Source of the DNA: Marivita sp.
Lineage (GTDB): Bacteria; Pseudomonadota; Alphaproteobacteria; Rhodobacterales; Rhodobacteraceae
DNA length: 64,000 nucleotides
Assembly: GCF_020055675.1 (NCBI RefSeq)
Contig: NZ_JAIPUS010000011.1
Coordinates: 774 to 64,773 of the forward strand
Direction: 5' to 3'
A model generated the notes under the pieces. The model was not told the DNA's origin, searched no databases, and worked only from the letters and a program-made list of their open reading frames with translations. How positions within the stretch are numbered: position 1 is the first letter of the stretch; every line of letters begins with the position of its first letter. Positions 23,834 through 46,453 of this stretch are shown piece after piece. The position numbers were made by a program, and so were the translations under genes.

Positions 23834-24835
23834 TCAAGCGGCCTGTGTGGCCATCAACTCCTTCCAGCGGTGGCAGGACACGGCATGTCCCGCGCCGTCG
23901 ATTTCCAATTGCGGCTCGACCTGTTTGCAATGGTCGATCGCATGCGGACAGCGCGTGTGGAATTTGCAGCCCGAGGGCTGGTTCGTGGGTGACGGGATTT
24001 CGCCTGTCAGCTTTTGCACCGCACCCCGATCATCGGGATCAAGCGACGGGATCGCCGAAAACAAGGCCCTCGTGTAGGGATGACGCGCTGCTTCGAAAAG
24101 CTTGCGCGTGGGCGCGGTTTCGACCAGCCGGCCCAGATACATGACCGCGACATGATCACAGGTATGGGCAACCACCGACAGATCATGACTGATGAACATG
24201 AATGTAACGCCCATGTCGGACTGGATCTGCTTCAAAAGATTCAGAACATCCGCCTGGATCGACACATCGAGCGCGGCGACGCTTTCATCGGCAACGATGA
24301 AGTTCGGAGCCGAGACAAGCGCGCGCGCGATCGAGATCCGCTGACGCTGGCCGCCAGAAAATGCATGCGGGAAACGACGCAGATGCTCTAGGTTGAGCCG
24401 GCATTTCGCCGCGATCTCGCGCACGCGCTTGTCGGTTTCCTGACGCGTTTTGGTCAGGCCCATCACTTCCAGCGGTTCGGCGATAATGTCGCGCACCGTC
24501 ATGCGCGGGCTCAAGGCCGCGTATGGATCCTGAAAGATCAGCTGCGCCCGTTTGCGATAATCCTTGAGCTGGTTCTTGGTGATGTTTTCGAGGTCGTATT
24601 CCACCTCTCCATCGCTGTAATGCGCGCCGCCCCCTGTGATCGGAACTGCCTTGAGAAGCGCGCGCCCCAGCGTTGTCTTGCCCGACCCGCTTTCCCCGAC
24701 AAGTCCAAAGACAGATCCCTTTTCGATGTCCAGCGACACGTCATCGACTGCCTTGAGGATCTGCTTGCTGAACAGGCCGGAGCCTATGGGAAACCCGACG
24801 GACAGGCTCTTCGCTCGGATCAGTATGTCGCTCAC
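23834..24835 (-). CDS. Oligopeptide-type ABC ATP-binding protein (OppF-like)
   Basis: GESGSGKT, FSGGQRQRI, DESVAALD, C-terminal CKFHTRC. Confidence 0.9.
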   Translation of the reverse strand: MSDILIRAKSLSVGFPIGSGLFSKQILKAVDDVSLDIEKGSVFGLVGESGSGKTTLGRALLKAVPITGGGAHYSDGEVEYDLENITKNQLKDYRKRAQLIFQDPYAALSPRMTVRDIIAEPLEVMGLTKTRQETDKRVREIAAKCRLNLEHLRRFPHAFSGGQRQRISIARALVSAPNFIVADESVAALDVSIQADVLNLLKQIQSDMGVTFMFISHDLSVVAHTCDHVAVMYLGRLVETAPTRKLFEAARHPYTRALFSAIPSLDPDDRGAVQKLTGEIPSPTNQPSGCKFHTRCPHAIDHCKQVEPQLEIDGAGHAVSCHRWKELMATQAA

Positions 24836-25827
24836 GCCATCTCCTCCGTGTAGATATGACATGCAACACGATGCGACCCGTCAAGATCGCGGTCTTTCGG
24901 GTCGACTTGCTTGCAGACATCGCCAACCACCTGGCGACAGCGGGTGTGAAACACACATCCTGATGGCCGTTCCAACGGAGACGGAATATCACCGGGCACA
25001 GGGGTCAGCGGCGCATCAATATCATCCAGTTTCGGCAGCGCGGCGATGAGTCCTTGTGTGTATGGATGCTTGGGCTGGCGGATCACATCACGCACCGGAC
25101 CGGTTTCGATCATGCGTCCCAGATACATCACATTCACCTTGTCGGCAGTCTGGGCCACGACACCCAGGTCGTGCGTGATAAAGACGATCCCCATCTGGAA
25201 TTCCGATACGAGATCTTTCATCAGGTCGATCACCTGCGCCTGGATCGTCACGTCCAGAGCGGTGGTCGGCTCATCCGCGATCAGAAGCTTGGGCTGTGTC
25301 GAAAGTGCCATGGCGATCATCGCGCGCTGCCGCATCCCGCCGGACAACTCGAACGCATATTGATTGAACCGCTTGCCAGCGTCCGAAATCCCGACACGGT
25401 CGAGCATCTCGATGGACCAGCGTTTTGCCTGTTCCTTGGTGTAGTCGCCATGCAGTTGCAGCTGTTCGACCATCTGGTTGCCGATGCTGATCGCGGGGGC
25501 GAAACTGGCCATCGGTTCCTGGAAAATCATCGAAACGGCGCCTCCGCGCACGATGTTCAACTCCTTCGGCGTCTTCAGCGACAAGACATCGACCGGGCCG
25601 GTCTCGGTGTGCAGAGTGATCTTGCTTTCAGGGCTGTAGACCGCGTTCCTGGCATTGAGATGCATCAGCGCCTTGGCGGTGACGGACTTGCCAGAGCCGC
25701 TTTCGCCGACCAGCCCCATGACCTCGCTCTTGTCGAGCGAGAAGCTCACATTGTCGACAGCCGTGATCAATCCCTCGTCGGTACGGAATTGCAGCGTCAG
25801 GTTTTCAACATCAAGCAAAGCCGTCAT
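24832..25827 (-). CDS. Oligopeptide-type ABC ATP-binding protein (OppD-like)
   Basis: GESGSGKS, LSGGMRQR, DEPTTALD, CVFHTRC. Confidence 0.9.
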   Translation of the reverse strand: MTALLDVENLTLQFRTDEGLITAVDNVSFSLDKSEVMGLVGESGSGKSVTAKALMHLNARNAVYSPESKITLHTETGPVDVLSLKTPKELNIVRGGAVSMIFQEPMASFAPAISIGNQMVEQLQLHGDYTKEQAKRWSIEMLDRVGISDAGKRFNQYAFELSGGMRQRAMIAMALSTQPKLLIADEPTTALDVTIQAQVIDLMKDLVSEFQMGIVFITHDLGVVAQTADKVNVMYLGRMIETGPVRDVIRQPKHPYTQGLIAALPKLDDIDAPLTPVPGDIPSPLERPSGCVFHTRCRQVVGDVCKQVDPKDRDLDGSHRVACHIYTEEMA

Positions 25828-27023
25828 TTGTTGTTATCCGAATAGGGGTCGGCTGCGTCGCGCAGACCGTCGCCGACAAACACGAACGCCATCACCAGTG
25901 CGATGAAAAAGATCACGGGGATGAAGTACCATTGATAGTTGAGCAGCACATCCGCGCTGGTCACGTTCTGGAGCATGACCCCGAGACTGTTGACCGGATC
26001 CTTGAGGCCCAGCCCGATAAAGGACAGCGCGGTTTCCGACAGCACCATGTACGGAAACGAGATCACCAGATCCACGATAATGTAGCTGGTAAAACTGGGC
26101 AGCAAATGCCGCCGGATCACATGGCCCGAGGACGCGCCACACAACTGCGCCGCCAGCACGTATTCCTGATTGCGCTCGGTCAGAAGATGCGTCCGCACCC
26201 GCCGCGCCAAGGTGGGCCAGCCGATCAGCCCGAGGATCAGGGATATGTAGAAGAACCGTTCCTCTGCCGAAAGCTCTGGCGGCATGAAGGCAGCCACAGC
26301 CATGAACAGCGGGATCGCGGGCACCGTTCGGACGGCATCTGTGATCATCTGCAACACGGAATCGATCCAGCCGCCATAGTATCCCGACACACCCCCGATC
26401 ACGAGCGCCAGGACAAAGGCGATAAAGACGCCGATGGTGCCCACCTGAAGCGAGGTCCAGATCGCGTGGAAGGTGCGCGAGAAGATGTCCTTGCCGCTCG
26501 CATCCGTGCCGAAGACATGCACAAAACCCTCTTGGGTGCCAAACAGATGCGTGTCCATCGGGATGAAGCCGAACAGCTTGTACTCCCAGCCCTCGACGAA
26601 GAAATAGACGTAGTTCCGCTCGTCCTCGTTCACCGTCGTCACCCAGCGGAAATTCGTTTCCAGGGACCGTTCCCGCTCCACGGCGTGCACGAAGGGGCGC
26701 AGGGAACAGCCAGTGTCATCACAGAACATCGGAACCTGCGGCGCGCCGTTGGTGTAATCGTCATTCTTGCCCGCTATGGTCGGATTGTACGGCGACAGGA
26801 ACGGCGCAAAGAGGCCTGTCAGGATCAAGAAGGCCAGCACGCAGGCGGCGACCATCGCCGACCGTTGTTTCTTGAACCGTGCCCAGATCAGCTGGCCCTG
26901 CGAGGCGGTGAAATACGCCTCTTTCGACCTGCGCTGCACCGCGTCTTCTGTTTCGACCACCTGCACATGGGGGCCGGTGGTCTCTGCGAGGTTCGGCTGC
27001 AGGGGATCCGGTGTCGTCGTCAT
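25824..27023 (-). CDS. ABC permease (OppC-like)
   Basis: FGTDASGKDIFSR, EYVLAAQLCGAS..HVIRRHLLP, ETALSFIGLG. Confidence 0.9.
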   Translation of the reverse strand: MTTTPDPLQPNLAETTGPHVQVVETEDAVQRRSKEAYFTASQGQLIWARFKKQRSAMVAACVLAFLILTGLFAPFLSPYNPTIAGKNDDYTNGAPQVPMFCDDTGCSLRPFVHAVERERSLETNFRWVTTVNEDERNYVYFFVEGWEYKLFGFIPMDTHLFGTQEGFVHVFGTDASGKDIFSRTFHAIWTSLQVGTIGVFIAFVLALVIGGVSGYYGGWIDSVLQMITDAVRTVPAIPLFMAVAAFMPPELSAEERFFYISLILGLIGWPTLARRVRTHLLTERNQEYVLAAQLCGASSGHVIRRHLLPSFTSYIIVDLVISFPYMVLSETALSFIGLGLKDPVNSLGVMLQNVTSADVLLNYQWYFIPVIFFIALVMAFVFVGDGLRDAADPYSDNNK

Positions 27024-27027
27024 GGCG

Positions 27028-28032
27028 TCACCTCACAATGCTTTTGCGGACGCGCGGGTCCAGAACGGCCAGCATCACATCCGTCAGAAAGTTCAGCGAC
27101 ACGATGGACGCCGTCAGAAGGAAGATGATCGCGCCGGCAAGCTGTTGGTCATTCGACCGTGCCAGCGCCTCGATCAACAGCGCCCCCGCCTCGGTCAGCG
27201 TCAGGATGAGGGCCACGATGGGCAATTCGTTGAAGATGCGATTGAGATCGAACCCGAGGCTGTTGATGATCGGCCCGAGCGCATGACGCGCCGGGTAATT
27301 CCACAAAAGCCTGCGCCCATGCACACCGCGGGCCGACGCAGCCGTGACATAAAGCTTGCCAATCTCGTCGGACATGAGGGCGCGCACCGTCTGAAGCGCA
27401 AAGGCCGTGGCCGACCAACCAAGAATGAAGATGGGAAGCCAAGCATTGCTGAGCAGGTCTTTCATCCGCCCCCAACTCCAGTCCGCATCGCGATATTCGG
27501 CGGAAAAGAGGCCGGTCAGCGTGTCCCCGAAATACACGGTCGAGAACAGCATGATCATCAGCGCCAGCAGGAAATTCGGCAGCGCCAGGCCAAGATAGCT
27601 GAACAGGCGCAACGAATTGTTCAGAACCGCGTTTTGCGAGGCCGCCGCAATGATCCCGACGGGCAGGGCGATGGCATAGGCAAGCGCCAGAGACGCCAGA
27701 CACAGGCCAAGCGAGATCCAGAACTTGTCACCCATCAATTGCGCGATATTCACCCGCAGGATGCAGCTTTCGCCGAATTCGCCCTGAAAGGCGTTGACGA
27801 TCCACTTGCTCCACCGTTCAAGAAACGGGCGGTCAAGGCCCAGTCGCACGCGTTCGGCTTCGATATCGGCCACCGAAATGCCGGAGCCTTGTGTGTTCTT
27901 GAAGGCCAGATAGCGTTCGGCACAATCGCCGGGGACAAACTCCATCAGCGAAAACACGACAAGCGAGACGATCACCAATGTGAGCATCGCGAAAACAGCG
28001 CGTGTCGCAACAAAACGAGCAAAGTTCAGCAT
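27028..28032 (-). CDS. ABC permease (OppB-like)
   Basis: LGLDRPF, ALPNFLLALM, EAA-like loop YVTAASARG. Confidence 0.88.
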   Translation of the reverse strand: MLNFARFVATRAVFAMLTLVIVSLVVFSLMEFVPGDCAERYLAFKNTQGSGISVADIEAERVRLGLDRPFLERWSKWIVNAFQGEFGESCILRVNIAQLMGDKFWISLGLCLASLALAYAIALPVGIIAAASQNAVLNNSLRLFSYLGLALPNFLLALMIMLFSTVYFGDTLTGLFSAEYRDADWSWGRMKDLLSNAWLPIFILGWSATAFALQTVRALMSDEIGKLYVTAASARGVHGRRLLWNYPARHALGPIINSLGFDLNRIFNELPIVALILTLTEAGALLIEALARSNDQQLAGAIIFLLTASIVSLNFLTDVMLAVLDPRVRKSIVR

Positions 28033-28151: not shown

Positions 28152-30191
28152 TTATTCGTCCAGCCACCATTGCGTGGCACGGTACGGATAGGTCCGGTAG
28201 TATTCGTAGGAATGCGTCTTGAAGTCGGCAAAGTTCTTCAGATCGTTGTTCTGATAAATCGGTGCCGGAGCATTCACAGTGCCGATGAACATCATGTTCT
28301 CGACCATCGCCTTGACCAGATCATTGCCAAGCTGCTCGAACTCCGCGGTGCCTTGGGCGGCGGACTGAAGCGCGTTGATGTCGTCGATCATGTCCTTGGC
28401 CCATTGCGGAGGCTCGACACCCTCGGCACCATCGGAATCGATCCACTCGGCCCAGAGCATCGCGTTGCGCACACCGAAGTAGTTTTCATACGGCGGCACC
28501 CACAATTCGTTGTTGCCCAGAACAATCGCCAGCGGCTGTGATTTGCGCCACATGGCCACGTCAAGCTGGTTCGAGGACTGCGCCGACCGGTACTCGTCCG
28601 GCGTCACTTCCTTGACCACGGACTGGATCCCCACATCGGCCCAGTTCTGTGCCACGAGTTCAACGGTCTGACCGGCCACGCCCTGGGTCGAGAAGTTGAG
28701 GTTCAGCACAAGCTTGTCGCCGTTCGGCAATTCGCGGAAGCCGTCACCGTCGGTGTCTTCCATGCCCAGCGCATCAAGCGCAGCATTGGCCGCATCTGGA
28801 TCATACTCGGCCTTGTAGGTCAGCCAGTCCTGATCCACGAATTCCGGCAACGGCGAGAACCCCACATATTGCTGCGGTGTGCCCTGACCGAAGAAGCCAA
28901 GCTCGTTCAGATCTTCGCGGTTGATCGCAACCGACATCGCCTCGCGGAAGGACAGATCGCTGAACACTGCGCGCTTGGCCGGGTCCTCATGCGTGACGTT
29001 GAAACCGAACACGCTCTGCGTGATCTCGGAGCGCAGATGAATGGTGTAGTCGCTGCTTTCCTGGTTCTCCAGGAGGATCGGCGCAGAGGCGAGTTGCAGG
29101 GATTGAGACTTGTAATCCACCTCACCGTTCACGAGCTTGAGGATACGCACCTCGTTGTCGTTGATATAAAGCTCATCCTGCGTCGAGATATAGGGCAACT
29201 GCTGGCCCGTCGGATCGACCTGGAAGAAGTAGGGATTCGCCACCAACTGACGGCCCTCGGTCGTGTCGTTGATGTAGATGTGCGATTCCAGCGTCGGATA
29301 GGTCGCCTTGGGCAGATCGTCGACAATATCGGCACGCGACAACATCGGCGTCGGCGTGTCGGTCCAGTCGGAGTTGCCATAATACGCAAGAATGGCGTCA
29401 TAACCGTCTTCGAACCCGAGGCTCTGCGCATAGCTGTCCGCATCCGGGTTCACATCCGGGTGGAACTGGCCAAGGAAATGCTTCGGCTGGAATGGCTGCG
29501 AATAATGCGTCGCAAAATGCGCGATCAAACCGGGCTTCGGTGCCGGCAGGTTGAAGATCACCGTGGTGTCGTCCGGTGCTTCGATGGTCATCGGCTCGCC
29601 CGCGACGGTGATGTAATCCTTGGGCGTTTCGGAGATGTTTTCGTCCAGCATCAGGTTGTCGTGGTAGAACACGATATCCGCACTGGTGAACGGCTCACCG
29701 TCGGACCACTTGTGGCCTTCGCGCAGCTTGATCGTCAGTTGGGTGAAATCGTCGTTCCAGTCCCATGACTTCGCCACGTTCGGCACGATGGTCTGAAGAT
29801 CGTCTGAGTAGCGCATCAGGCTGACATGGCGCACCGACAGGAAATCGGACGTGCCCGCCTCGGTCGCGTTGGACAAGACGTTCAGTTCACCGCCATATTC
29901 GCCAACACTGTTATAGGGCACCATGACAAGAGGTTCGGCCGGGATCCGCTCGGAGAGCGGTGGAAGCTCCGGGTTGCCCTTGATCTGCGCGTTCAGCGCT
30001 TCAATCTCGGGGTTGGTGGAAAACTCCATCACGCAGCCAGCGGCGTCCTGAAAGGCACTGAGCTCGTATTGCTGGGGATATTCGCCGGGCGCGATGCCCT
30101 GCATGTCATCCAAGGTGACCGCCGGGCAATTGGCATAGGCCGCTGCCGGAAGGGCAAGCAGGGCAACGCCTGAAAGTAATAGTCGTTTCAT
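28152..30191 (-). CDS. ABC substrate-binding protein, family 5, about 680 aa
   Basis: Signal peptide MKRLLLSGVALLALPAAAYA; LPPLSERIP..P, YGG, PNVAKSW.WNDD, LREGHKWSDGEPFTSADI; GGAG RBS. Confidence 0.88.
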   Translation of the reverse strand: MKRLLLSGVALLALPAAAYANCPAVTLDDMQGIAPGEYPQQYELSAFQDAAGCVMEFSTNPEIEALNAQIKGNPELPPLSERIPAEPLVMVPYNSVGEYGGELNVLSNATEAGTSDFLSVRHVSLMRYSDDLQTIVPNVAKSWDWNDDFTQLTIKLREGHKWSDGEPFTSADIVFYHDNLMLDENISETPKDYITVAGEPMTIEAPDDTTVIFNLPAPKPGLIAHFATHYSQPFQPKHFLGQFHPDVNPDADSYAQSLGFEDGYDAILAYYGNSDWTDTPTPMLSRADIVDDLPKATYPTLESHIYINDTTEGRQLVANPYFFQVDPTGQQLPYISTQDELYINDNEVRILKLVNGEVDYKSQSLQLASAPILLENQESSDYTIHLRSEITQSVFGFNVTHEDPAKRAVFSDLSFREAMSVAINREDLNELGFFGQGTPQQYVGFSPLPEFVDQDWLTYKAEYDPDAANAALDALGMEDTDGDGFRELPNGDKLVLNLNFSTQGVAGQTVELVAQNWADVGIQSVVKEVTPDEYRSAQSSNQLDVAMWRKSQPLAIVLGNNELWVPPYENYFGVRNAMLWAEWIDSDGAEGVEPPQWAKDMIDDINALQSAAQGTAEFEQLGNDLVKAMVENMMFIGTVNAPAPIYQNNDLKNFADFKTHSYEYYRTYPYRATQWWLDE

Positions 30192-30399: not shown

Positions 30400-30417
30400 A
30401 TGACAGATCCATGACAG
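30400..30417 (-). promoter_or_regulatory. Pho box (PhoB site) upstream of the ABC operon
   Basis: Minus strand CTGTCAT-GGAT-CTGTCAT: two consensus heptamers at 11-bp period, oriented toward the SBP gene. Confidence 0.75.
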
Positions 30418-30426
30418 TCCAACGGG

Positions 30427-31926
30427 TCACGACGCCACCTTAACGCCGTCATCGGTAATCTTCGTGCGGGAAAACGTGCCATCGGCATGGATCATGCGAT
30501 GGCGGAGCAAATCCTGCATCAAATCGAGCATTGTCTGCGAATGTGATGAATTTTTCGCCAGGTTTTGCGTCTCGGTCCCACCCGACACATCCATGAGAAC
30601 AGGGGGCAAGCCCCCGGCAAACTGCACATAGCGCAGAGTGTCTTTGCGCAGCACGGCCAGCTTGGCCTCGTCGATGGACAGGCCATGCGCCGTTTGCCAA
30701 GCCGTTGGCGTGATCGGGTCAGCGAAATCAAGCTCGGACACCGAAACCTGTTTCCAGGCCTCCGGAACGGTCCGGTTCAGAAACGGTTTCAGGCTGCGCC
30801 CATCCATGGAATGGAGCACCGACAGGCCAAGGCAGTCGAGGATTGTCGGCGTCACATCTATCGACTCTGTCGGCGCCATCACGACATGACCGCGCGCTTG
30901 GGCCGCTGGATCGCGGATGATCAGCGGGACATGGAAAGCGGCGTCGTGGAACGTTGTCTTGCCCCAAATACCGTAATCACCCAACAAGTCGCCATGATCG
31001 GCAGTCAGGACGATCAGCGTGTCGTCATACTGGCCCGTCTCCCTGAGCCAGCCGATCAGCCGGCCGACATGATGATCGACCTCGGTCGCCAGCCCGAAAT
31101 AGAGCTTGCGGATCATCTTGGTGGTTTCGTCTGTCGCGGGCAGATCGGGAAACCCGATGACAGTCGACGCGGCAGAGCTTTGCATCCGCGCGGTGGTCAG
31201 GAACGGGTGCCAATCCGGGTCCGCAGCCTGTCGCGGCGGGGGCATCCGCGCAGCATCATACATCGCGTTGTAAGGCGCCGGGGCGACAAACGGGGGATGC
31301 GGGCGAATATAGGTCAGCAGCGCGAACCAGCCGGAATCGCGCTGCGACAGGTCGGCAAGCGTCCGGTCGGTCAGGAAGGCGGTATCACTGTCGCCGGCTG
31401 CGTAAAGGGCCGGAGCGTCAGGCGCATCTCCCGCGGGTCGGTACAGGGCCGGATAGGGCGGGACATCATACCCCTTCTGGCCCAGGTCGGTCTCCCACGC
31501 GCGGGAATCGCCTTCCAGACGCATTCGCACCACTTCGGTGAAACCGGGCATCACCTCTTCATAGGAAAACAACCGCGGATCGTCCGGGGGCAGGAACCGG
31601 GGATCCTGCGATGTGTCGGTATACCCAAAGAGCAGCGGATCATGCCCCTGCGCGCGCATCACGCTGGCAAGGTTCGGCGTATCCCGCTTGAGCGGCGTCC
31701 CGTTGCGGGTCGCTCCGTGGTTCGACGCGTATTGCGCCGTGAGCAGCGACACCCGAGACGGCCCGCAGGGCGAGGTGACGGAATAATGCGACTGGAACGC
31801 GACCGAGTCATCGGCCAGCTTACGGATATTGGGCAGGTCAAGATGCTCTGACAGAGCGCCGAAAACGCAATCAGCGCGCAGCTGATCGATTACGATAAAA
31901 AGCGTATTCGTCTTGGTTTTTGTCAC
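30427..31926 (-). CDS. Alkaline phosphatase superfamily, phosphonate monoester hydrolase/phosphodiesterase (PMH/PehA-like)
   Basis: LFIVIDQLRAD, SPCGPSR..LLT (CxPxR), YIRPHPPFVAPAPY, TADHGDLLGD...GK; no signal peptide. Confidence 0.72.
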   Translation of the reverse strand: MTKTKTNTLFIVIDQLRADCVFGALSEHLDLPNIRKLADDSVAFQSHYSVTSPCGPSRVSLLTAQYASNHGATRNGTPLKRDTPNLASVMRAQGHDPLLFGYTDTSQDPRFLPPDDPRLFSYEEVMPGFTEVVRMRLEGDSRAWETDLGQKGYDVPPYPALYRPAGDAPDAPALYAAGDSDTAFLTDRTLADLSQRDSGWFALLTYIRPHPPFVAPAPYNAMYDAARMPPPRQAADPDWHPFLTTARMQSSAASTVIGFPDLPATDETTKMIRKLYFGLATEVDHHVGRLIGWLRETGQYDDTLIVLTADHGDLLGDYGIWGKTTFHDAAFHVPLIIRDPAAQARGHVVMAPTESIDVTPTILDCLGLSVLHSMDGRSLKPFLNRTVPEAWKQVSVSELDFADPITPTAWQTAHGLSIDEAKLAVLRKDTLRYVQFAGGLPPVLMDVSGGTETQNLAKNSSHSQTMLDLMQDLLRHRMIHADGTFSRTKITDDGVKVAS

Positions 31927-32888: not shown

Positions 32889-32916
32889 GGATCCCTCCGA
32901 TTTGATACGAAGACAT

Positions 32917-32931
32917 ATAACCAAGGGTTAT
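32917..32931. promoter_or_regulatory. Putative LysR recognition site
   Basis: Palindrome ATAACC-AAG-GGTTAT containing T-N11-A in the lysR/phnW divergent gap. Confidence 0.6.
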
Positions 32932-33010
32932 TGAAGAATAGCAAACAAAGATTTCAAATATGAATGCCCGCATTGCATATCGGACACAGGATCAAATTCG
33001 GAACCCCGCC

Positions 33011-37730: not shown

Positions 37731-37742
37731 TGCACCACCGGA

Positions 37743-38609: not shown

Positions 38610-38623
38610 AAAATGATGCCGTT

Positions 38624-38639: not shown

Positions 38640-38712
38640 TCGTTGCTTGGATTGGTACAAAAATCAACCAAATTTTCTTGACATGGCCCGAAACAGCACG
38701 ACAAATGAAATA

Positions 38713-39480
38713 GTGATCCAGAACACCCCACATACGATTCTGACCGCGCAGGATAGCGCCGCCGAGGTGATCCACCCCGAGGGCGCCGCGCCGATCTGCC
38801 TTGTCTGCGAACACGCCAGCGCCCGGATTCCTGCGGTGCTGGACGATCTGGGTCTCGCGCCCGAGGACCGCTACAGCCACGCCGCATGGGACATCGGCGC
38901 GCGCGATCTGGCCGTTGCACTGGCGCAAAAGCTCGACGCACCGCTTGTCGCGGCGGGCGTGTCGCGGCTCGTCTATGACTGCAACCGCCCGCCAGAAGCA
39001 CCGGATTCGATCCCGGCACGGAGCGAACTGGTAGAGGTGCCCGGCAATGCCGACCTGAGCAACGACGACCGACAGGCGCGCGTTGCCTCGGTCTACAGAC
39101 CCTTCCGCGACATGCTGTGCCGCAAGCTCGATCAATTCGAGAAACCTCCGATCATGGTGACATTGCACAGCTTCACGCCTGAATGGTTCGGCGTTCCACG
39201 CAACGTTGAACTCGGCCTGCTGCACGACAACGACGACCGGTTGGCAAAGGCAATGCTCGCAGAGGCGCCGCACGACCTGGATACACGGCTCAACGCCCCT
39301 TACGATGCCAGCGATGGTGTAACGCACACGCTGCGCGAACACGCGGTCCCGCGGGGGCTTCACAATGTCATGGTCGAAATTCGCAACGACCTGATCTCCG
39401 ACAGCACCGGGATTGCGCGATTTGCCGATATCCTTGGCGATATGCTGACACGGGCAATGGTCCGGGAGGTGGCGCGATGA
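38713..39480 (+). CDS. N-formylglutamate amidohydrolase family (putative gamma-glutamyl-glycine amidohydrolase)
   Basis: LVCEHAS, HAAWDIGA, VSRLVYDCNRP, LHSFTP, HTL.EHA, VMVEIRNDLI; start uncertain. Confidence 0.82.
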   Translation: MIQNTPHTILTAQDSAAEVIHPEGAAPICLVCEHASARIPAVLDDLGLAPEDRYSHAAWDIGARDLAVALAQKLDAPLVAAGVSRLVYDCNRPPEAPDSIPARSELVEVPGNADLSNDDRQARVASVYRPFRDMLCRKLDQFEKPPIMVTLHSFTPEWFGVPRNVELGLLHDNDDRLAKAMLAEAPHDLDTRLNAPYDASDGVTHTLREHAVPRGLHNVMVEIRNDLISDSTGIARFADILGDMLTRAMVREVAR

Positions 39481-40058
39481 CGGCTGCCCTCAAGGCTTAT
39501 GTGCGGGTCATCGACCCGGTCAACCGGATGATCGGGCGCATCGTGATGTACGGCATCTTCGTGATAATCGGCATCCTGCTCTGGTCCACCGTTTCCAAGG
39601 CGTTCCTGCTGCCCTCGCTCTGGACACTTGAAATGGCGCAATTCGCGATGGTCGCCTATTACATCCTTGGGGGTCCATATTCGATCCAGATGGGGTCCAA
39701 CGTGAGGATGGACCTGATCTACGGCGAAATGAGCGACCGCCGCAAAGCCGCCATCGACGCTATGACGGTGGTGTTCCTGCTCGTCTACCTCGGTTTCCTG
39801 CTCTATGGCGGCATCGCCTCCACCGCCTATTCGCTGGGCTATTTCGGATCGGAACCGATCAGCTTTTTCGCGGGCCTTGCCACAGGCAGCGCCGAACTTG
39901 GCTTCCTCGAACGCAGCCCCACCTCGTGGCAGCCTTACCTTTGGCCGATCAAGACGATCATGGTGATCGGCATCTTCCTGATGCTGCTCCAGGTGCTCTG
40001 CGAACTGGCCAAGGACATCCTGCGCCTCAAGGGACATGAAATGGGAGCCAAGGTCTGA
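39477..40058 (+). CDS. TRAP small permease (DctQ)
   Basis: 4 TM; WTLEMAQF, NVRMDLIY. Confidence 0.88.
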   Translation: MTAALKAYVRVIDPVNRMIGRIVMYGIFVIIGILLWSTVSKAFLLPSLWTLEMAQFAMVAYYILGGPYSIQMGSNVRMDLIYGEMSDRRKAAIDAMTVVFLLVYLGFLLYGGIASTAYSLGYFGSEPISFFAGLATGSAELGFLERSPTSWQPYLWPIKTIMVIGIFLMLLQVLCELAKDILRLKGHEMGAKV

Positions 40059-41383
40059 TGCCTTACGAGGTGATAGCCGCCCTCATGTTCTCGACCATGA
40101 TGCTGATGCTGCTCACCGGGCAGCGTGTATTCGGCGCCATCGGGTTTGTGGCCGTGATGGCGGCCTTTCTGCTCTGGGGGGACCGGGGCGGATACGACCT
40201 TGGCTTCTCGGCGGCGATGAAGCTGATGAAATGGTATCCGCTGCTGACTTTGCCGATGTTCATCTTCATGGGCTATGTCTTGTCCGAAAGCCGCATCGCC
40301 GACGACCTTTACCGCATGTTCCACGTCTGGATGGGCGGGCTGTCGGGGGGGCTGGCCGTGGGCACCATCGGCCTGATGGTCCTGATCTCTGCCATGAACG
40401 GGCTCAGCGTCGCGGGCATGGCCATCGGGGCCACCATCGCCCTGCCAGAACTCTTGCGGCGAGGATACGACAAACGCATGGTCACCGGGGTGATCCAGGC
40501 CGGATCATCCCTGGGCATCCTCGTGCCACCCTCGGTGGTGCTGGTGCTCTATGCGATGATCGCCCGGCAGCCCGTCGGCCAGCTCTGGCTGGCCGGGGTG
40601 ATCCCCGGCCTGTTCATGGCAGCGATGTTCATCATCTATATCACCGTCCGCTGCAAACTGAACCCGGCGCTTGGCCCGGTCCTGCCTGCCGCCGAGCGCG
40701 ACATTCCCCGCGCCGAAAAGCTGCGCTTGCTGCGCGCCGGTATCCTGCCGCTTGCGATCTTCTTCATCATGATGGTGCCTTTCGTGAACGGTTGGACCTC
40801 GCTCGTCGAAAGCTCGGCCATCGGCGCCATCGCCGCCTTCATGGCGGCTGTCCTCAAGGGACGCATGACACGCCAAGTGTTCGAAAACTCGGTCCGTCAG
40901 ACCCTTGGCATCTCCTGCATGTTCATGTGGATCATCCTGGCCGCACTGGCCTTCGGCGCGGTGTTCGATGGGCTGGGCGCGGTCAAGGCGATCGAAAGCC
41001 TGTTCACCGAACAGCTTGGCCTGAACCCCTGGATGATCCTGATCCTGATGCAGCTCAGCTTCATCATCATGGGCACCTTCCTTGACGACACCGCAATGCT
41101 GGTGATCGTGGCCCCGCTCTACGTGCCGCTGGTGGGAGCGCTCGGCTTTGACCTGATCTGGTACGGCATCCTTTATACCATCACCACGCAGATCGCCTAT
41201 ATGACTCCGCCCTTCGGCTATAACCTGTTCCTGATGCGCGCGATGGCCCCGCCCGAGATAACCCTGCGCGACATCTATACATCCATCCTTCCCTTCGTGG
41301 CAGTGATGGTGGTCGCCCTTGCGACGATCATGATCTTCCCGGAAATCGCCCTGTGGCTCCCGGGATACGTATACGGAAATTAA
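40058..41383 (+). CDS. TRAP large permease (DctM)
   Basis: PMFIFMGYVL, GSSLGILVPPSVVLVLY, AYMTPPFGYNLF. Confidence 0.92.
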   Translation: MPYEVIAALMFSTMMLMLLTGQRVFGAIGFVAVMAAFLLWGDRGGYDLGFSAAMKLMKWYPLLTLPMFIFMGYVLSESRIADDLYRMFHVWMGGLSGGLAVGTIGLMVLISAMNGLSVAGMAIGATIALPELLRRGYDKRMVTGVIQAGSSLGILVPPSVVLVLYAMIARQPVGQLWLAGVIPGLFMAAMFIIYITVRCKLNPALGPVLPAAERDIPRAEKLRLLRAGILPLAIFFIMMVPFVNGWTSLVESSAIGAIAAFMAAVLKGRMTRQVFENSVRQTLGISCMFMWIILAALAFGAVFDGLGAVKAIESLFTEQLGLNPWMILILMQLSFIIMGTFLDDTAMLVIVAPLYVPLVGALGFDLIWYGILYTITTQIAYMTPPFGYNLFLMRAMAPPEITLRDIYTSILPFVAVMVVALATIMIFPEIALWLPGYVYGN

Positions 41384-41433
41384 CCAAGAGACCCCGCAAA
41401 CGGGGCGCATCAACCCAACCGAGAGGAAATGAC

Positions 41434-42471
41434 ATGACCACAAGACGAAAGTTTCTGAAAACCGCTGGCATCGCCGGTGTCGGCAGCCTCGCCGCTCCCG
41501 CTGTCGTCAAGGCGCAGGACGCAATCACATGGCGCTTCCAGACCTACGCAGGGGCTGCTTTGGGCGAGCATGTGACCAAGCCGGTGATCGACTACATCAA
41601 CAACAACTCCAACGGCGAGCTTCAGGTCGAATTGTTCTACGCCGACCAGATCGTCCCCACGGGAGAGCTGTTCCAGGCGCTCCAGCGCGGCACCATCGAT
41701 GGCGTGCATTCGGATGACGACTCCATGGCATCCCCCACCCCGCTGCGCCAATTCGGCGGCTATTTCCCGTTTGCGACCAAGCATATCCTCGACGTGCCGG
41801 TGCTCTTCAACCAGTACGGCCTGGCCGAGATCTGGGACGAGGAATATGCCAAGGTCGGTGTGAAGTGGCTGTCGGCCGCGGGCCAGGACCCGTGCAACTT
41901 CAATACCACCAAGGAAATCACCTCGGTCGCCGATCTCGACGGCCTGCGGCTCTACACTTTCCCGACTGCGGGGCGCTTCCTGTCGCAATTCGGCGTTGTC
42001 CCGGTCAGCATCCCCTACGAGGATGCCGAGGTTGCGGTGCAGACAGGCGAGCTTGACGGCATGGCCTGGTCCGGCATCACAGAAGATTACACTGTCGGCT
42101 GGGCGGACGTGACCGACTACTTCCTGACCAACAATATCTCGGGGGCGTGGATCGGATCTTGGTTCGTCAACCAGCAACGCTGGGCCGACCTGCCCGATCA
42201 CCTCAAATCCGTCGTCATGGCCGCCACCGAGGCAGGCCATACCTATCGCAACCAATGGTACTGGGGCGGCGAAGCGGCGCTGCGCGCAAACGGTGAAAAG
42301 CTGGCGCTGCGCCAGGTCCCCGCAAGCGAATGGGCCGAGGTCGAGAACGCCGCCAAGGAGTTCTGGAACGAGATTGCGGAAGAAGGTGAAGTGCACCAAA
42401 AAGTCATCGACATCTTCCGCGAATATAACGGTGTCATCAATCAGGCGGGTGCCCCGTACACGTTCGAGTAA
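41434..42471 (+). CDS. TRAP substrate-binding protein (Tat signal), putative ethanolamine-binding
   Basis: MTTRRKFLKTAGIAG twin-arginine signal; WRFQTY, IVPTGELFQAL; context matches the Chromohalobacter ethanolamine cluster. Confidence 0.8.
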   Translation: MTTRRKFLKTAGIAGVGSLAAPAVVKAQDAITWRFQTYAGAALGEHVTKPVIDYINNNSNGELQVELFYADQIVPTGELFQALQRGTIDGVHSDDDSMASPTPLRQFGGYFPFATKHILDVPVLFNQYGLAEIWDEEYAKVGVKWLSAAGQDPCNFNTTKEITSVADLDGLRLYTFPTAGRFLSQFGVVPVSIPYEDAEVAVQTGELDGMAWSGITEDYTVGWADVTDYFLTNNISGAWIGSWFVNQQRWADLPDHLKSVVMAATEAGHTYRNQWYWGGEAALRANGEKLALRQVPASEWAEVENAAKEFWNEIAEEGEVHQKVIDIFREYNGVINQAGAPYTFE

Positions 42472-42570: not shown

Positions 42571-43923
42571 ATGACCCTAGACGAGTTGCAAGCCAAAGCC
42601 GAGACCGGCGAGATCGACACCGTTCTGGTGTGCATGGTCGACATGCAGGGGCGCCTCATGGGCAAGCGTTTCCATGTCTCGAACTTCCTCGAAAGCGCCT
42701 GGAAAGAGACCCATTGCTGCAATTACCTGCTCGCCACCGATCTCGAAATGGACACGCCGGCTGGCTACAAATCCACCAGTTGGGCAGCGGGGTACGGCGA
42801 TTACGTCATCCAGCCCGACCTTGGCACGCTGCGCAATGTTCCGTGGCTTGAAGGCACCGTCATGGTCCTGTGTGATGTGCTTGACCACCACACCCACAGC
42901 CCGGTTCCCCATTCGCCGCGCCAGATGCTCAAGAAACAGGTGGACCGCCTGTCCGAGATGGGCCTGACCCCGATGATGGCCACCGAGCTGGAATTCTTCC
43001 TGTTCGAACACAGCTTCGATGACATCCGCAAATCCGGGTTTCGCACCCTGACCCCGATCAGCGGGTATAACGAGGATTACAACATCCTCCAGACCACCCG
43101 TGAAGAACACGTCATGCGTCCGATCCGCAATCACCTGGTGGCCGCCGGCGTGCCTGTCGAAAACTCCAAGGGCGAGGCCGAGACCGGCCAGGAAGAGCTG
43201 AATATCCGTTACGCCGACGCATTGGCCTGCGCCGACAACCACACCATCGCCAAACACGCGGTCAAGGAAATCGCCCAGATGCAGGGCCACGCCGCGACCT
43301 TCATGCCAAAGTGGCGCGCCGACAAGGTGGGCAGCGCCGCGCATGTGCACCAGTCGCTGTTCAAGGGCGACACCAACGTTTTCCATGACGCGGGTGACAC
43401 GCTCACCATGTCCGACACGATGAAAAGCTATGTCGCGGGCCTGATCAAATATGCCCCCGACATGACCATTTTCCTTGCACCCTACGTCAACAGCTACAAA
43501 CGCTTCCTGCCAGGCACATTCGCCCCCACCAAGATCGCCTGGTCAGTTGACAACCGGACTGCGGGCTACCGGCTTGTCGGTGACGGGACCAAAGGCGTGC
43601 GGATCGAATGTCGCATCCCGGGCTCCGATATCAACCCGTATCTTGCCTGCGCGGCGCAGCTCGCGGCAGGGATTGCCGGCATGGAGGAGAGACTGTCGCT
43701 GGCCGATCCGGTGTCCGGCGATGTCTACGGCATGACCGACATCCCCGAGATTCCGAACACTTTGCTCAAGGCCACGGATGTCCTGCGCAACTCCACAATG
43801 CTGCGCGCCGCCATGGGCGACGACGTGATCGACCACTACACCCGCGCCGCCGAAGTCGAACAGGAAGCGTTCGACGCCGCTGTCACCGACTGGGAACTCC
43901 AGCGCGGATTTGAAAGAGCCTGA
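42571..43923 (+). CDS. Glutamine synthetase-like gamma-glutamylase (putative ethanolamine gamma-glutamylase)
   Basis: DMQGRLMGKR, ELEFFLF, KGEAETGQEELN, GSAAHVHQSL, WSVDNRT, RIECRIPGSDINPY. Confidence 0.8.
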   Translation: MTLDELQAKAETGEIDTVLVCMVDMQGRLMGKRFHVSNFLESAWKETHCCNYLLATDLEMDTPAGYKSTSWAAGYGDYVIQPDLGTLRNVPWLEGTVMVLCDVLDHHTHSPVPHSPRQMLKKQVDRLSEMGLTPMMATELEFFLFEHSFDDIRKSGFRTLTPISGYNEDYNILQTTREEHVMRPIRNHLVAAGVPVENSKGEAETGQEELNIRYADALACADNHTIAKHAVKEIAQMQGHAATFMPKWRADKVGSAAHVHQSLFKGDTNVFHDAGDTLTMSDTMKSYVAGLIKYAPDMTIFLAPYVNSYKRFLPGTFAPTKIAWSVDNRTAGYRLVGDGTKGVRIECRIPGSDINPYLACAAQLAAGIAGMEERLSLADPVSGDVYGMTDIPEIPNTLLKATDVLRNSTMLRAAMGDDVIDHYTRAAEVEQEAFDAAVTDWELQRGFERA

Positions 43924-43926
43924 ACC

Positions 43927-45303
43927 ATGACCAAGACCCAAGACCTGATCTCCCCGATCGACGGATCGGTTTATCTCACACGCGATGTACTGCCCCGCGA
44001 CGCCGCCTTTGCCGCCGCGAAACGCGCCCGCGACGCCCAGGCCGACTGGGCCGCGCGCCCGGTGGCCGAACGCATCGCGCTGGTCCGCAAGGCCGGCGAG
44101 ATCATTGGCACGCAAACCGACCGCATGGCGACCGAACTGGCGCACCAGATGGGCCGCCCGATCCGCTACGGCGGCGAATATGGCGGCTTCGACGAACGCC
44201 TGACCTACATGGCGGACGTGGCCGAAGAGGGCCTCGCCCCGATGGAAATCGAGGACAGCGCCACCGCCCACCGCGTCATCAAGCGGGTTCCCTGGGGCAC
44301 CGTTCTGGTGATCGCGCCCTGGAACTACCCCTATATGACCGCCATCAACACCGTCGCCCCGGCCCTGATCGCCGGCAACAGCGTGATCCTGAAGCACGCC
44401 GCCCAGACGCTCGCCGTCGGCGACCATCTGGCCGAGGCGTTTCATGCCGCAGGCGTGCCGGAAGACGTGTTCCAGAACCTCGTGCTCGACCACGATACCA
44501 CCTCTGCCCTGATCACCGACCGCGCGGTCGATTTCGTGAACTTCACCGGATCGGTCGGTGGCGGTCAGGCGATGGAACGCGCAGCGGCGGGCACCTTCAC
44601 GCCGGTCTCGACCGAACTTGGCGGCAAGGACCCCGGCTATGTCCGTGCCGATGCCAATGTCGACGCGGCAGTCGATGGGCTGATGGATGGCGCGATGTTC
44701 AACGCCGGGCAATGCTGCTGCGGAATCGAACGCATCTACGTGCACGAGAGCCTATATGACGCGTTTGTCGAAAAGGCGGTCGCCTGGGTCAACGCGCAGA
44801 AACTGGGCAACCCTCTGGACCCCGACACGATGATGGGCCCGATGGCCAACGTGCGCTTTGCCCGCGAGGTTCGCGCTCAGATAGACGAGGCGCTGGCCGA
44901 TGGCGCCACGGCCCATATCGACACCATGCCTGCCGACGATGGCGGCGCGTATCTCACCCCGCAAGTCCTGACCAATGTCACCCACAAGATGCGCGTCATG
45001 CGCGACGAAAGCTTCGGCCCGGTGATCGGCATCATGCCGGTCAAGGACGACGAGGAGGCGGTCAAGCTTATGAATGACAGCCAATTCGGCCTGACCGCCG
45101 CGATCTTTTCCAAGGACGCCGATGCCGTCGAAGCCATCGCGGACCGGATCGAGACCGGCACCGTCTTCATGAACCGCTGCGACTACCTCGACCCCGCGCT
45201 CTGCTGGACCGGGTGCAAGGACACAGGTCGCGGGCAGGGTCTGTCGAAACTGGCGTATCAGGCTCTGACACGCCCCAAATCCTACCATCTCAAGAAAGCG
45301 TGA
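43927..45303 (+). CDS. Aldehyde dehydrogenase (putative gamma-glutamyl-aminoacetaldehyde dehydrogenase)
   Basis: IAPWNYPY, FTGSVGGG, ELGGKDP, FNAGQCCCG, ESFGP. Confidence 0.85.
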   Translation: MTKTQDLISPIDGSVYLTRDVLPRDAAFAAAKRARDAQADWAARPVAERIALVRKAGEIIGTQTDRMATELAHQMGRPIRYGGEYGGFDERLTYMADVAEEGLAPMEIEDSATAHRVIKRVPWGTVLVIAPWNYPYMTAINTVAPALIAGNSVILKHAAQTLAVGDHLAEAFHAAGVPEDVFQNLVLDHDTTSALITDRAVDFVNFTGSVGGGQAMERAAAGTFTPVSTELGGKDPGYVRADANVDAAVDGLMDGAMFNAGQCCCGIERIYVHESLYDAFVEKAVAWVNAQKLGNPLDPDTMMGPMANVRFAREVRAQIDEALADGATAHIDTMPADDGGAYLTPQVLTNVTHKMRVMRDESFGPVIGIMPVKDDEEAVKLMNDSQFGLTAAIFSKDADAVEAIADRIETGTVFMNRCDYLDPALCWTGCKDTGRGQGLSKLAYQALTRPKSYHLKKA

Positions 45304-45307
45304 CGAC

Positions 45308-46453
45308 ATGAGCCTCACCGGAAACTGGTCCTACCCCACCGCCATCCGCTTTGGCGCAGGCCGCATCTCGGAAATCGCCGAGGCCTGCCTCGCCGCCGGG
45401 ATCACCAAGCCGCTTCTGGTCACCGACCGGGGTCTCGCGGACATGGAGATCACCACCAAGACCCTGAACCTGATCGAACAGGCCGGGCTGGGCCGTGCGA
45501 TGTTTTCGGATGTCGATCCCAACCCGAACGAGAAAAACGTCGAAGAGGGTCTGCGCGTCTACCGCGAAGGCGGGTTCGACGGCGTCGTGGCCTTTGGCGG
45601 CGGGTCGGGTCTGGACCTTGCCAAGACGCTGGCCTTCATGGCCGGCCAGTCCCGCCCGCTGTGGGATTTCGAAGACATCGGCGACTGGTGGACCCGCGCG
45701 GATCCCGCCGGCATTCACCCCATCGTCGCCGTGCCCACAACTGCGGGCACCGGCTCCGAAGTGGGCCGCGCCAGCGTCATCACAAATTCGGAAACCCACG
45801 AGAAAAAGATCATCTTCCACCCCAAGATGCTCCCCGCCGTGGTGATCTGCGACCCCGAACTGACCGTGGGCATGCCCAAATTCATCACCGCAGGCACCGG
45901 GCTTGATGCCTTTGCCCATTGCGTCGAGGCCTATTCCAGCCCGCATTACCATCCGATGAGCCAGGGCATGGCGCTGGAAGGCATGAAGCTGGTCGTGGAA
46001 AACCTGCCCCTTGCCTATAAGGACGGGTCACATATCGACGCGCGCGCCAACATGATGAGCGCCGCCGCCATGGGGGCCACCGCCTTCCAAAAGGGGCTGG
46101 GTGCGATCCATGCGCTGTCGCACCCCATCGGCGCGCATCACCAAACGCATCATGGAACAACGAATGCGGTCTGCATGCCCGCCGTGCTCAAGTTCAATGC
46201 AGACGCCATCCGCGACCGCTTCGACCGCGCGGCGGGGTATCTGGGTATCGACGGCGGCTTCGACGGGTTCTGCGCCTTTGTCGATCAGTTCAACGACAGT
46301 TTCGCGATCCCGAAAACGCTGACCGATCTGGGCGTCACGGACCCGGATCTCGACGTGCTGGTGCGCGACGCGCTCAACGACCCGTCCACAGGCGGCAACC
46401 CGGTCACCATGACCGAAGCCAATACCCGCGCCCTATTCGAATCCGTCTTCTAA
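45308..46453 (+). CDS. Iron-containing alcohol dehydrogenase (putative gamma-glutamyl-ethanolamine dehydrogenase)
   Basis: GGGSGLD, VPTTAGTGSE, GLDAFAHCVE, HALSH, HHGTTNA. Confidence 0.87.
   Translation: MSLTGNWSYPTAIRFGAGRISEIAEACLAAGITKPLLVTDRGLADMEITTKTLNLIEQAGLGRAMFSDVDPNPNEKNVEEGLRVYREGGFDGVVAFGGGSGLDLAKTLAFMAGQSRPLWDFEDIGDWWTRADPAGIHPIVAVPTTAGTGSEVGRASVITNSETHEKKIIFHPKMLPAVVICDPELTVGMPKFITAGTGLDAFAHCVEAYSSPHYHPMSQGMALEGMKLVVENLPLAYKDGSHIDARANMMSAAAMGATAFQKGLGAIHALSHPIGAHHQTHHGTTNAVCMPAVLKFNADAIRDRFDRAAGYLGIDGGFDGFCAFVDQFNDSFAIPKTLTDLGVTDPDLDVLVRDALNDPSTGGNPVTMTEANTRALFESVF

Follow-up and report, generated by a model that had tools for sequence, protein, structure and literature searches.

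A candidate Pho-controlled salvage island for 2-aminoethyl-phosph(on)ate esters in the genome of Marivita sp.

Gene content of the island

A 64-kb stretch of the genome of Marivita sp. (assembly GCF_020055675.1, contig NZ_JAIPUS010000011.1), hereafter called the window and numbered from its first nucleotide, contains at 23834-46453 an island of 20 contiguous genes. Assignments with Pfam and NCBIfam identified a family-5 ATP-binding cassette (ABC) importer, an enzyme of the phosphonate monoester hydrolase (PMH) type, the genes phnWAY for the degradation of 2-aminoethylphosphonate (AEP) with a LysR-type regulator, and an ethanolamine (Eto) operon with a transporter of the tripartite ATP-independent periplasmic (TRAP) type (Table 1). 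All the gene classes named for this region in an earlier note, which had been made from the sequence without database searches, are present, although the amidohydrolase gene had been misplaced: it opens the TRAP operon and does not close it. The edges of the island coincide with gene ends, namely the stop codon of the last ABC gene, abcF (23834), and that of the iron-containing alcohol dehydrogenase gene (46453). Exopolysaccharide genes lie on the left flank and genes of urate/purine catabolism on the right; since neither is related to the island content, the block is a delimited unit. This candidate salvage island consists of one new module and two known modules.

Table 1. Genes and control elements of the island in the Marivita sp. 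window.
Position	Strand	Feature	Basis of assignment
23834-24862	-	ABC ATPase, DppF/OppF-like, last gene of the importer operon	Pfam ABC_tran and oligo_HPY
24832-25827	-	ABC ATPase, OppD-like	Pfam ABC_tran and oligo_HPY; NCBIfam OppD subfamily, under cut-off
25824-27023	-	ABC permease, OppC-like	Pfam BPD_transp_1 and OppC_N; 63-95% identity across related loci
27028-28032	-	ABC permease, OppB-like	Pfam BPD_transp_1 and BPD_transp_1_N; 66-94% identity across related loci
28152-30191	-	Periplasmic family-5 (cluster C) solute-binding protein, 679 aa	Pfam SBP_bac_5; Sec signal peptide
30400-30417	-	Pho box, two perfect CTGTCAT repeats 4 bp apart	CTGTCATGGATCTGTCAT
30427-31926	-	PMH/phosphodiesterase-like enzyme, sulfatase fold	Pfam Sulfatase; formylglycine motif CGPSR
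32010-32888	-	LysR-type regulator, probably of the AEP-associated subfamily, divergent from phnW	Pfam HTH_1 and LysR_substrate
32889-33010	.	Divergent LysR/phnW control region, AT-rich	Sequence reading
33011-34192 (start maybe 32960)	+	PhnW, 2-aminoethylphosphonate-pyruvate transaminase	NCBIfam NF010006, 548 vs 296 bits
34203-35462	+	PhnA, phosphonoacetate hydrolase	NCBIfam TIGR02335, 507 vs 408 bits
35459-36898	+	PhnY, phosphonoacetaldehyde dehydrogenase	NCBIfam TIGR03250, 762 vs 636 bits
36903-37730	+	EamA/DMT membrane protein, "phosphonate utilization associated" (phn_DUF6) type	Pfam EamA
37743-38609	-	RpiR-family regulator	Pfam HTH_6 and SIS; placed as RpiR in the Phaeobacter Eto operon
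38683-39480	+	FGase-family amidohydrolase (gamma-glutamylglycine amidohydrolase of the Eto pathway)	Pfam FGase; operon position as in PMC10132767
39477-40058	+	TRAP small permease EtoV, DctQ	Pfam DctQ
40058-41383	+	TRAP large permease EtoW, DctM	Pfam DctM; NCBIfam dctM subfamily
41353-42471	+	TRAP binding protein, EtoX/Csal_0678 orthologue	Pfam DctP
42571-43923	+	Glutamine-synthetase-like ethanolamine gamma-glutamylase	Pfam Gln-synt_C; Eto operon position
43927-45303	+	Aldehyde dehydrogenase (gamma-glutamylacetaldehydeamide dehydrogenase)	Pfam Aldedh; Eto operon position
45308-46453	+	Iron-containing alcohol dehydrogenase (gamma-glutamylethanolamide dehydrogenase)	Pfam Fe-ADH and ADH_Fe_C; Eto operon position

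Importer and Pho box

The top NCBIfam matches of the terminal ATPase of the importer are dipeptide/oligopeptide ATPases, every one of them under its cut-off, and orthologues of this subunit in related loci are 66-90% identical. The start of the binding protein was placed at the ATG at 30191, replacing the mechanically called TTG at 30212, and its signal peptide was read from the sequence. Homologues of this protein are nearly all exactly 679 aa long, with 75-97% identity. Among solved structures, the closest to it are SPH1118, 5IPW, and AgpA, all oligosaccharide binders. These relatives align only from about residue 70, past a conserved N-terminal extension of about 50 residues (residues 22-90) carrying C22 and C53, which are invariant in the alignment. 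The protein belongs to PF00496 only and lacks PF13343, the domain tested for as that of the known AEP importers AepXVW, AepSTU, and PhnSTUV.

The Pho box is located directly past the PMH stop codon and about 190 bp upstream of the ATG of the binding-protein gene, and is the sole match with at most two mismatches in the 64 kb, where 0.34 would be expected. The description of the importer as "Pho-box-led" in the earlier note is apt insofar as the box heads the ABC genes; it does not head the PMH gene. In 8 of 17 genome loci the intergenic region ahead of the binding-protein gene contains similar sites (at most three mismatches), and in 19 of 70 metagenome loci such a site precedes this gene, as compared to 64 of 3000 random windows (~2%). 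In two distant loci, L033 and L040 (surveyed loci carry L numbers throughout), such sites precede the PMH gene itself. The conservation of the Pho box indicates that the importer very probably scavenges phosphorus, and a peptide or a plain sugar is therefore an unlikely ligand.

PMH-like hydrolase

The hydrolase matches PF00884 at 143 bits over residues 7-367. It is closer to the solved PMHs than to sulfatases, as evidenced by scores of 565 bits to 4UPK, named "phosphonate monoester hydrolase," and 298-320 bits to the Rhizobium and Burkholderia enzymes, 2VQR and 2W8S (320 bits to 2VQR), versus at most 126 bits to choline sulfatases. The best NCBIfam match is PehA, with 394 bits against a cut-off of 900, so the protein is a relative of PehA and not its equivalog. 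The formylglycine motif, C54-G-P-S-R58, is invariant in the PMH alignment. Residues D14, N75, Y102, H210, D310, H311, and K323 align with D12, N78, Y105, H218, D324, H325, and K337 of the Rhizobium leguminosarum enzyme, whose active site we take to comprise these residues and T107. Thr107 itself is replaced by Asp at residue 104 (GYTDT vs. GYTTT). This Asp is common to the PMH homologues of the window, Ruegeria pomeroyi, and Aliiroseovarius, and is a possible specificity determinant of the roseobacter clade. Overall identity to the R. leguminosarum enzyme is only 39-41%.

The protein starts directly with the catalytic strand that carries Asp14, leaving no space for a signal peptide, which indicates that it is cytoplasmic, as the earlier note had stated. 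Its placement in the PMH clade suggests that it cleaves phosphonate monoesters and phosphodiesters, the specificity described for these enzymes (PMC5649143).

AEP and ethanolamine modules

PhnW, PhnA, and PhnY are encoded contiguously on one strand and all score past the equivalog cut-offs. The top NCBIfam match of the regulator is phn_lysR (TIGR03339; 264 bits vs. a 341-bit cut-off), and the divergent layout with phnW is present; its start codon was read from the sequence at 32888. Together, phnWAY and the LysR gene, which probably belongs to the AEP-associated subfamily, are a canonical AEP route. The EamA protein, matching TIGR03340 best (133 bits vs. a 288-bit cut-off), recurs beside phn genes in 11-12 related loci.

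In Phaeobacter sp. MED193 the Eto operon comprises genes for RpiR, gamma-glutamylglycine amidohydrolase, EtoV/W/X, gamma-glutamylase, and two dehydrogenases, in this order (PMC10132767). The right-hand block of the island matches it in both content and order. In addition, the EtoX orthologue aligns with the ethanolamine-bound structure of Csal_0678 (PDB 4UAB) over 318 residues (54-371) at 478 bits. Judging by these matches, the block is the already characterised ethanolamine operon, and this module itself is not new. The RpiR and amidohydrolase genes overlap head to head in the mechanical calls of open reading frames; the refined starts, 38609 and 38683, are the likely ones and would leave a divergent control region of 73 bp. 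What the earlier note had stated of PhnWAY, of PMH enzymes, and of the ethanolamine TRAP cluster agrees with the NCBIfam and PDB matches and with the literature.

Gene neighbourhoods of PMH in genomes

Synteny was surveyed from two independent starting points, the PMH in genomes and the binding protein in metagenome contigs, with neighbourhoods of 10 kb. In the first survey a PMH alignment was scanned over one genome per species, and the loci found were mapped with the window proteins and with clustered neighbour genes. Among the 27 loci with a PMH at least 44% identical, AEP-type phosphonate genes are present in 15, the same family-5 ABC system in 15 (permeases 66-94% identical), both in 11, and Eto genes in four.

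The phosphonate genes near PMH encode PhnWAY, PhnW-PhnX, the hydroxy-AEP lyase PbfA, and the trimethyl-AEP dioxygenase TmpA, enzymes that act on aminophosphonates found in nature as esterified head groups. TmpA is encoded near PMH at L002 (3917-5035; 521 bits vs. a 400-bit cut-off) and in L009. With it the set of PMH neighbours also covers phosphocholine's phosphonate analogue.

The order of PMH, ABC, and phn genes is window-like in L001-4, L006, and L020. PMH is convergent with the ABC operon in L010, L013, and L015-19, and the ABC operon lies upstream of PMH in L021, L022, L042, and L047. The occurrence of at least three orders argues against simple inherited synteny. L021 and L022 extend the association to Hyphomicrobiales.

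Recurrent further neighbours are genes for a DeoR/GlpR-type regulator, an IMPase/HisN-like phosphatase, and a Na/Pi-PhoU transporter, all of which would fit a scheme of ester cleavage. A unit of Na/Pi-PhoU, DeoR, PMH, and ABC genes is found in Roseovarius nubinhibens. A gene of the Meth_synt_2 family (cobalamin-independent methionine-synthase-like, ~350-450 aa) also recurs downstream of the ABC operon or PMH (L023, L084, L100, L101, and L157).

The gene of the archetypal, structurally solved R. leguminosarum PMH lies on plasmid pRL9 of Rhizobium johnstonii 3841 (L162, 9995-17207), where genes for a family-5 binding protein, two Opp-type ATPases, and two permeases follow it directly. The binding protein is only a distant relative of that of the window, and the pair is located amid sugar-utilisation genes and a phosphotriesterase gene. 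On a plasmid of Aliiroseovarius crassostreae (L163, 7058-13539) PMH is divergent from an ABC importer of the PotD type (SBP_bac_8), and such a system replaces the family-5 one also in L011, L012, and L014. Identification of this PotD-type binding protein as AepX was rejected, as it belongs to SBP_bac_8 and gave no phnS-type NCBIfam match. A PotA/PotD pair, which may be the same system as the PMH-linked one, is induced by phosphate starvation in Phaeobacter MED193. Adjacency to an importer seems, from these loci, to be a general theme of the PMH family. The megaplasmid of R. pomeroyi DSS-3 (L161) was rejected as a carrier of the island context: neither phn nor ABC genes adjoin its PMH homologue (11992-13949), whose gene overlaps that of a MerR-family regulator and lies next to R-body (RebB) genes.

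Gene neighbourhoods of the binding protein in metagenomes

In the second survey a binding-protein alignment was scanned over metagenome contigs, and the loci were mapped as in the first. Forty loci were informative, their contigs reaching at least 2.5 kb upstream of the binding-protein gene. PMH, the commonest neighbour, was found in 17 of the 40, phn genes in 14, PMH or phn genes in 23, and Eto genes in nine, with the reservation that near-duplicates (L092/93/94, L100/101/103, L097/98, and L143-145) make raw counts overstate the number of independent events; independence was judged by arrangements and not by loci. L092 and L093, for example, show the same 22-kb arrangement, once at the beginning and once close to the end of a single 4.0-Mb contig (WLWD01000001.1), and are most likely one locus, seen twice through the assembly overlap of a circular chromosome.

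Clustering of the binding proteins distributed these contexts across almost every clade, and the family appears to be a single orthologous group. The idea that loci with the ABC system alone form a separate clade with another ligand was rejected, the contexts being mixed across clades. The arrangement in L092-94 is Eto operon, LysR, ABC, Na/Pi transporter, and PhnWAY, and that in L110 and L128 is LysR, PhnW, PhnX, and ABC; neither has PMH in the neighbourhood. The association of the modules extends to loci whose module genes have diverged (L141 and L157).

The earlier note had proposed a synteny survey of these modules; in the two carried out here, PMH, ABC, AEP-type phn, and Eto genes re-associate in many genera and in at least six orders.

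Linkage of the ethanolamine genes

Across both surveys, Eto genes adjoin PMH, ABC, or phn genes in at least six arrangements. They are located past the phn genes (class A: the window, L001, and L083), after the final ABC gene (class B: L006 and L097/98), divergent from PMH (class C: L100/101, L104, L017, and L011), ahead of LysR-ABC (class D: L092-94), with RpiR directly 5' of the binding-protein gene (class E: L126), or a few kb downstream of PMH (class F: L026). In L100 and L101, genes for the gamma-glutamylase, the aldehyde dehydrogenase, and the iron-containing alcohol dehydrogenase lie 250 bp from PMH-ABC, in divergent orientation and without TRAP genes. Their products are 61-69% identical to those of the window, which is the range of a bona fide Eto operon from another genus. 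L104 has the gamma-glutamylase gene alone, divergent beside PMH, and glutamine-synthetase-like orthologues with 62-69% identity adjoin PMH or the ABC system in other loci. Because Eto enzymes lacking the TRAP importer are encoded beside PMH-ABC, these loci are most simply read as a sign that the PMH/ABC route supplies ethanolamine within the cell. Judged by these arrangements, the Eto operon beside PMH, ABC, and phn genes is not a chance neighbour.

Proposed function of the island

We propose that the island encodes a Pho-controlled importer for esters of 2-aminoethyl-phosph(on)ate, which the PMH would cleave in the cytoplasm to feed PhnWAY and the Eto enzymes; the evidence, drawn from sequence and synteny, leaves this reading an about equal chance of proving right or wrong. 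Upon phosphate starvation, PhoB would switch on the family-5 importer, as suggested by the conserved Pho box. The importer would bring in a small organophosphorus ester bearing an AEP or phosphoethanolamine head group. Candidate ligands are glyceryl-AEP and glycerophosphoethanolamine, since they fit the GlpR-like regulators and the ethanolamine link, and sugar-linked AEP, since it fits the relatives of the binding protein. The cytoplasmic PMH would then cut the ester bond, in line with the documented preference of its family. The freed AEP would induce PhnW, PhnY, and PhnA via LysR and would be converted to acetate and phosphate by the pathway established for the PhnWAY families. Freed ethanolamine would be passed to the gamma-glutamylation enzymes of the adjoining Eto operon, while free ethanolamine could also enter through the TRAP transporter of Eto itself. 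Work in Phaeobacter and Chromohalobacter has established the function of Eto; synteny suggests its coupling to PMH.

A more specific version joins all these elements. In it, the 679-aa binding protein would recognise a 2-aminoethyl-phosph(on)ate ester motif, and this PMH clade would be the native esterase that frees AEP from phosphonolipids and phosphonoglycans and also acts on glycerophosphoethanolamine. One Pho-controlled importer would supply parallel C-P and C-O-P routes, with LysR sensing AEP and DeoR/GlpR sensing a phosphorylated polyol. We hold this joint reading only tentatively, as it is rather doubtful that all its parts apply together. Salvage of head groups, the interpretation offered in the earlier note, gains from the re-association of the modules and from the conserved Pho box, and must be qualified in that the modules are separable, Eto is autonomous, and glyceryl-AEP and glycerophosphoethanolamine are one candidate of several.

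Several observations weigh against the proposed ester import. The oligosaccharide-binding relatives of the binding protein do not point to glycerol esters. The PMH of the window has no Pho box ahead of it, and the sites were scored against a consensus that we assume to be two CTGTCAT-like repeats of 7 bp, 4 bp apart. Eto comes with a dedicated importer and regulator and works autonomously elsewhere, and each module has its own regulator. The modules also occur apart. ABC and phn genes are found without PMH within the 10-kb neighbourhoods of L091, L092-94, L110, L115, and L128, the ABC system stands alone with 10-kb flanks in L111, L116, L122, L137, and L142-144, and PMH is alone in R. pomeroyi or accompanied by the PotD-type ABC system elsewhere. 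Gene calls in the related loci are heuristic, and the near-duplicates noted above inflate the counts. Finally, the sequencing runs found to contain island sequence in two run searches are DNA metagenomes only, with no RNA runs among them.

The loci without PMH bear most directly on an alternative that we consider unlikely, namely that the ABC system imports free AEP and/or phosphoethanolamine, as a fourth type of AEP importer, with PMH in an accessory role such as conversion of phosphoethanolamine to ethanolamine, or with another substrate altogether. In L092-94, L110, L128, L091, and L115 the ABC genes form an apparent operon with PhnW-PhnX or NaPi-PhnWAY, near LysR. The window, moreover, encodes no known AEP importer (AepX, AepS, and PhnS are all PF13343 proteins), and the Phaeobacter study left Pho-independent or direct import of intact head groups open. 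An accessory PMH, however, is at odds with its being the commonest neighbour of the binding-protein gene, paired with it in nearly every clade, and with the preference of PMH-family enzymes for diesters and phosphonate monoesters. A 679-aa cluster C protein with oligosaccharide-binding relatives would be an odd match for a two-carbon ligand, and the DeoR/GlpR regulators and IMPase-like phosphatase near PMH suggest that the product is a phosphorylated polyol or sugar.

The relatives of the binding protein, which bind pectin oligosaccharides, alpha-galactosides, chitin oligosaccharides, and mannosides, raise the question of sugar-linked esters. Fragments of phosphonoglycans or marine polysaccharides could be imported and stripped of their phosph(on)ate by PMH in the cytoplasm. 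The R. leguminosarum PMH-ABC pair amid sugar-utilisation genes is consistent with this, as is the recurrence near the module of PbfA, which acts on hydroxy-AEP, a phosphonoglycan component. Marine high-molecular-weight polysaccharides also carry phosphonate and phosphate esters, on which a roseobacter PMH was postulated to act (PMC5649143). Yet no glycoside hydrolase or sugar catabolic gene recurs beside the module in the surveyed loci, glycerophosphoethanolamine would account more readily for the link to ethanolamine enzymes, and the alkylphosphonates of marine polysaccharides (methyl- and hydroxyethylphosphonate) are not substrates of PhnW. Import chiefly of such sugar-linked esters appears quite improbable.

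Least probable is an absence of functional coupling, in which three independent operons (phnWAY, eto, and an importer of peptides or sugars with its promiscuous esterase) would merely lie together in an inherited scavenging region of Rhodobacterales: every module does have its own regulator and transporter and is found by itself in some genomes, many of the loci surveyed belong to related Rhodobacterales whose shared ancestry inflates co-occurrence, and promoter and terminator scans stayed at chance level, but the modules occur in many orders and orientations not expected under inherited synteny, the association reaches Hyphomicrobiales (L021 and L022) and diverged module genes (L141 and L157), Eto enzymes without the TRAP importer adjoin PMH, the Pho box makes a peptide or plain-sugar ligand unlikely, and an 8-kb cluster would by our estimate fall within 10 kb of a given gene by chance in ~0.7% of 4-Mb genomes, as against 9 of 40 and 4 of 27 loci for Eto.

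Comparison with known systems

The acc operon of Agrobacterium Ti plasmids encodes a cluster C binding protein and an Opp-type ABC system that import a sugar phosphodiester, which is cleaved in the cytoplasm by AccF, termed only a phosphodiesterase; a phosphatase, AccG, is also encoded, and the phosphorylated product is sensed by the repressor AccR (PMC4526662). Similarly, in loci related to the island PMH and ABC are joined by a DeoR-type regulator and an IMPase-like phosphatase. Unlike the acc system, the esterase of the island has a sulfatase fold, and AccA is absent from the PDB matches of the binding protein (E at most 0.001). AccF is a glycerophosphodiesterase-type enzyme and not a sulfatase-fold PMH. 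The acc substrates are plant tumour opines, whereas the products in the island appear to be AEP and ethanolamine. By this comparison, the island would resemble acc in logic and not in membership.

Another combination of a Pho-regulated ABC importer with a cytoplasmic phosphodiesterase is ugpBAEC-ugpQ of Escherichia coli, which takes up glycerol-3-phosphate and glycerophosphodiesters. The pairing of a Pho-boxed importer with a cytoplasmic esterase is common to ugp and the island. UgpB, however, is a family-1 binding protein, UgpQ has the GDPD fold, and ugp has no link to phosphonate catabolism.

The PMH of the window shares its fold, formylglycine motif, and metal ligands with the R. leguminosarum PMH, PehA of Burkholderia caryophylli, and the 4UPK enzyme, and it is accompanied by a family-5 ABC importer, as is the R. 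leguminosarum PMH gene. With the marine AEP systems (AepXVW, AepP, or AepSTU with PhnWAY or PhnWX and LysR) the island has in common canonical PhnW, PhnA, and PhnY and, probably, the AEP-associated LysR. The importer, in contrast to AepX, AepS, and PhnS of PF13343, belongs to family 5 (PF00496) and is paired with an esterase; it also has a Pho box, whereas the known AEP systems were described as phosphate-insensitive. The Eto operon does not differ from those of Phaeobacter sp. MED193 and Chromohalobacter salexigens, with identical gene order and a close orthologue of Csal_0678; what distinguishes it is its recurrent placement beside PMH and ABC, sometimes without TRAP genes.

The adjacency of some of these genes has been noted before. 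Sosa et al. (2017) postulated that a PMH of Sulfitobacter frees phosphonate esters of marine polysaccharides (PMC5649143), and a 2026 paper recorded pmh beside phnWX and phnWAY-lysR in dinoflagellate-associated bacteria without commenting on the mechanism (PMC13608971). Neither contains the family-5 importer, the Pho box, the constraint of cytoplasmic location, the link to ethanolamine, or a synteny survey. A 2023 review of phosphonate degradation and papers on the genomic context of AEP genes make no mention of PMH, monoesters, or a family-5 importer. In the literature searched, the combined system is undescribed, these two papers being the only partial precedents. The statement in the earlier note that no description of it existed holds for the importer, its Pho control, and the ethanolamine link, but not for the adjacency of pmh and phn (PMC13608971) or the role of PMH (PMC5649143). 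All the part families are already known, and the logic has precedents in acc and ugp; new are the putatively Pho-controlled family-5 importer, its pairing with PMH, and the recurrent link of both to AEP and ethanolamine catabolism.

Phosphonolipids and phosphonoglycans contain most biogenic aminophosphonate in esterified form, and the dissolved organic phosphorus of the sea is for the most part ester-bound as well. To our knowledge, the native substrates of the characterised PMH enzymes, which for decades have served as models of catalytic promiscuity, are not known. Known AEP pathways and importers begin with free AEP, and the comprehensive 2023 review contains no ester-cleaving entry step. 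If the joint reading given above is true, the PMH family would gain the physiological substrate that it has long lacked, and a first step, so far missing, would connect esterified phosphonates with AEP mineralisation. A module of a putatively Pho-controlled importer and a cytoplasmic PMH opens two matters to direct testing, what PMH does natively and how esterified aminophosphonates enter catabolism, and R. nubinhibens is a cultivable carrier for such experiments. If this is confirmed, the binding protein and PMH would provide a quantifiable marker pair for following how lipid and glycan head groups are turned over in marine cycling of phosphorus and nitrogen.

Other features of the window

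Metagenomes that contain island sequence, according to the sequencing-run searches, come from soil, salt-lake, and marine sources. An Rfam scan of 21000-48000 for RNA elements gave no matches, and scans for promoters and terminators gave counts no higher than chance. Among the sites seen at this chance level are a weak promoter-like site 5' of PMH and a hairpin 3' of abcF.

Directly to the right of the island, a urate/purine catabolic cluster (46508-52704) encodes a membrane urate oxidase (Urate_ox_N), a xanthine/uracil permease, and a fused polysaccharide-deacetylase/OHCU-decarboxylase protein. Upstream of the island, genes at 691-7653 encode an aldehyde dehydrogenase, an alpha/beta hydrolase, and proteins of the sarcosine-oxidase type (a DAO subunit followed by a 985-aa alpha subunit with GCV_T), which point to catabolism of methylated amines or glycine betaine. 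The region 11954-18745 encodes a 964-aa molybdoenzyme of the DMSO-reductase family with a DmsC-like anchor, followed by a 626-aa thiamine-diphosphate enzyme.

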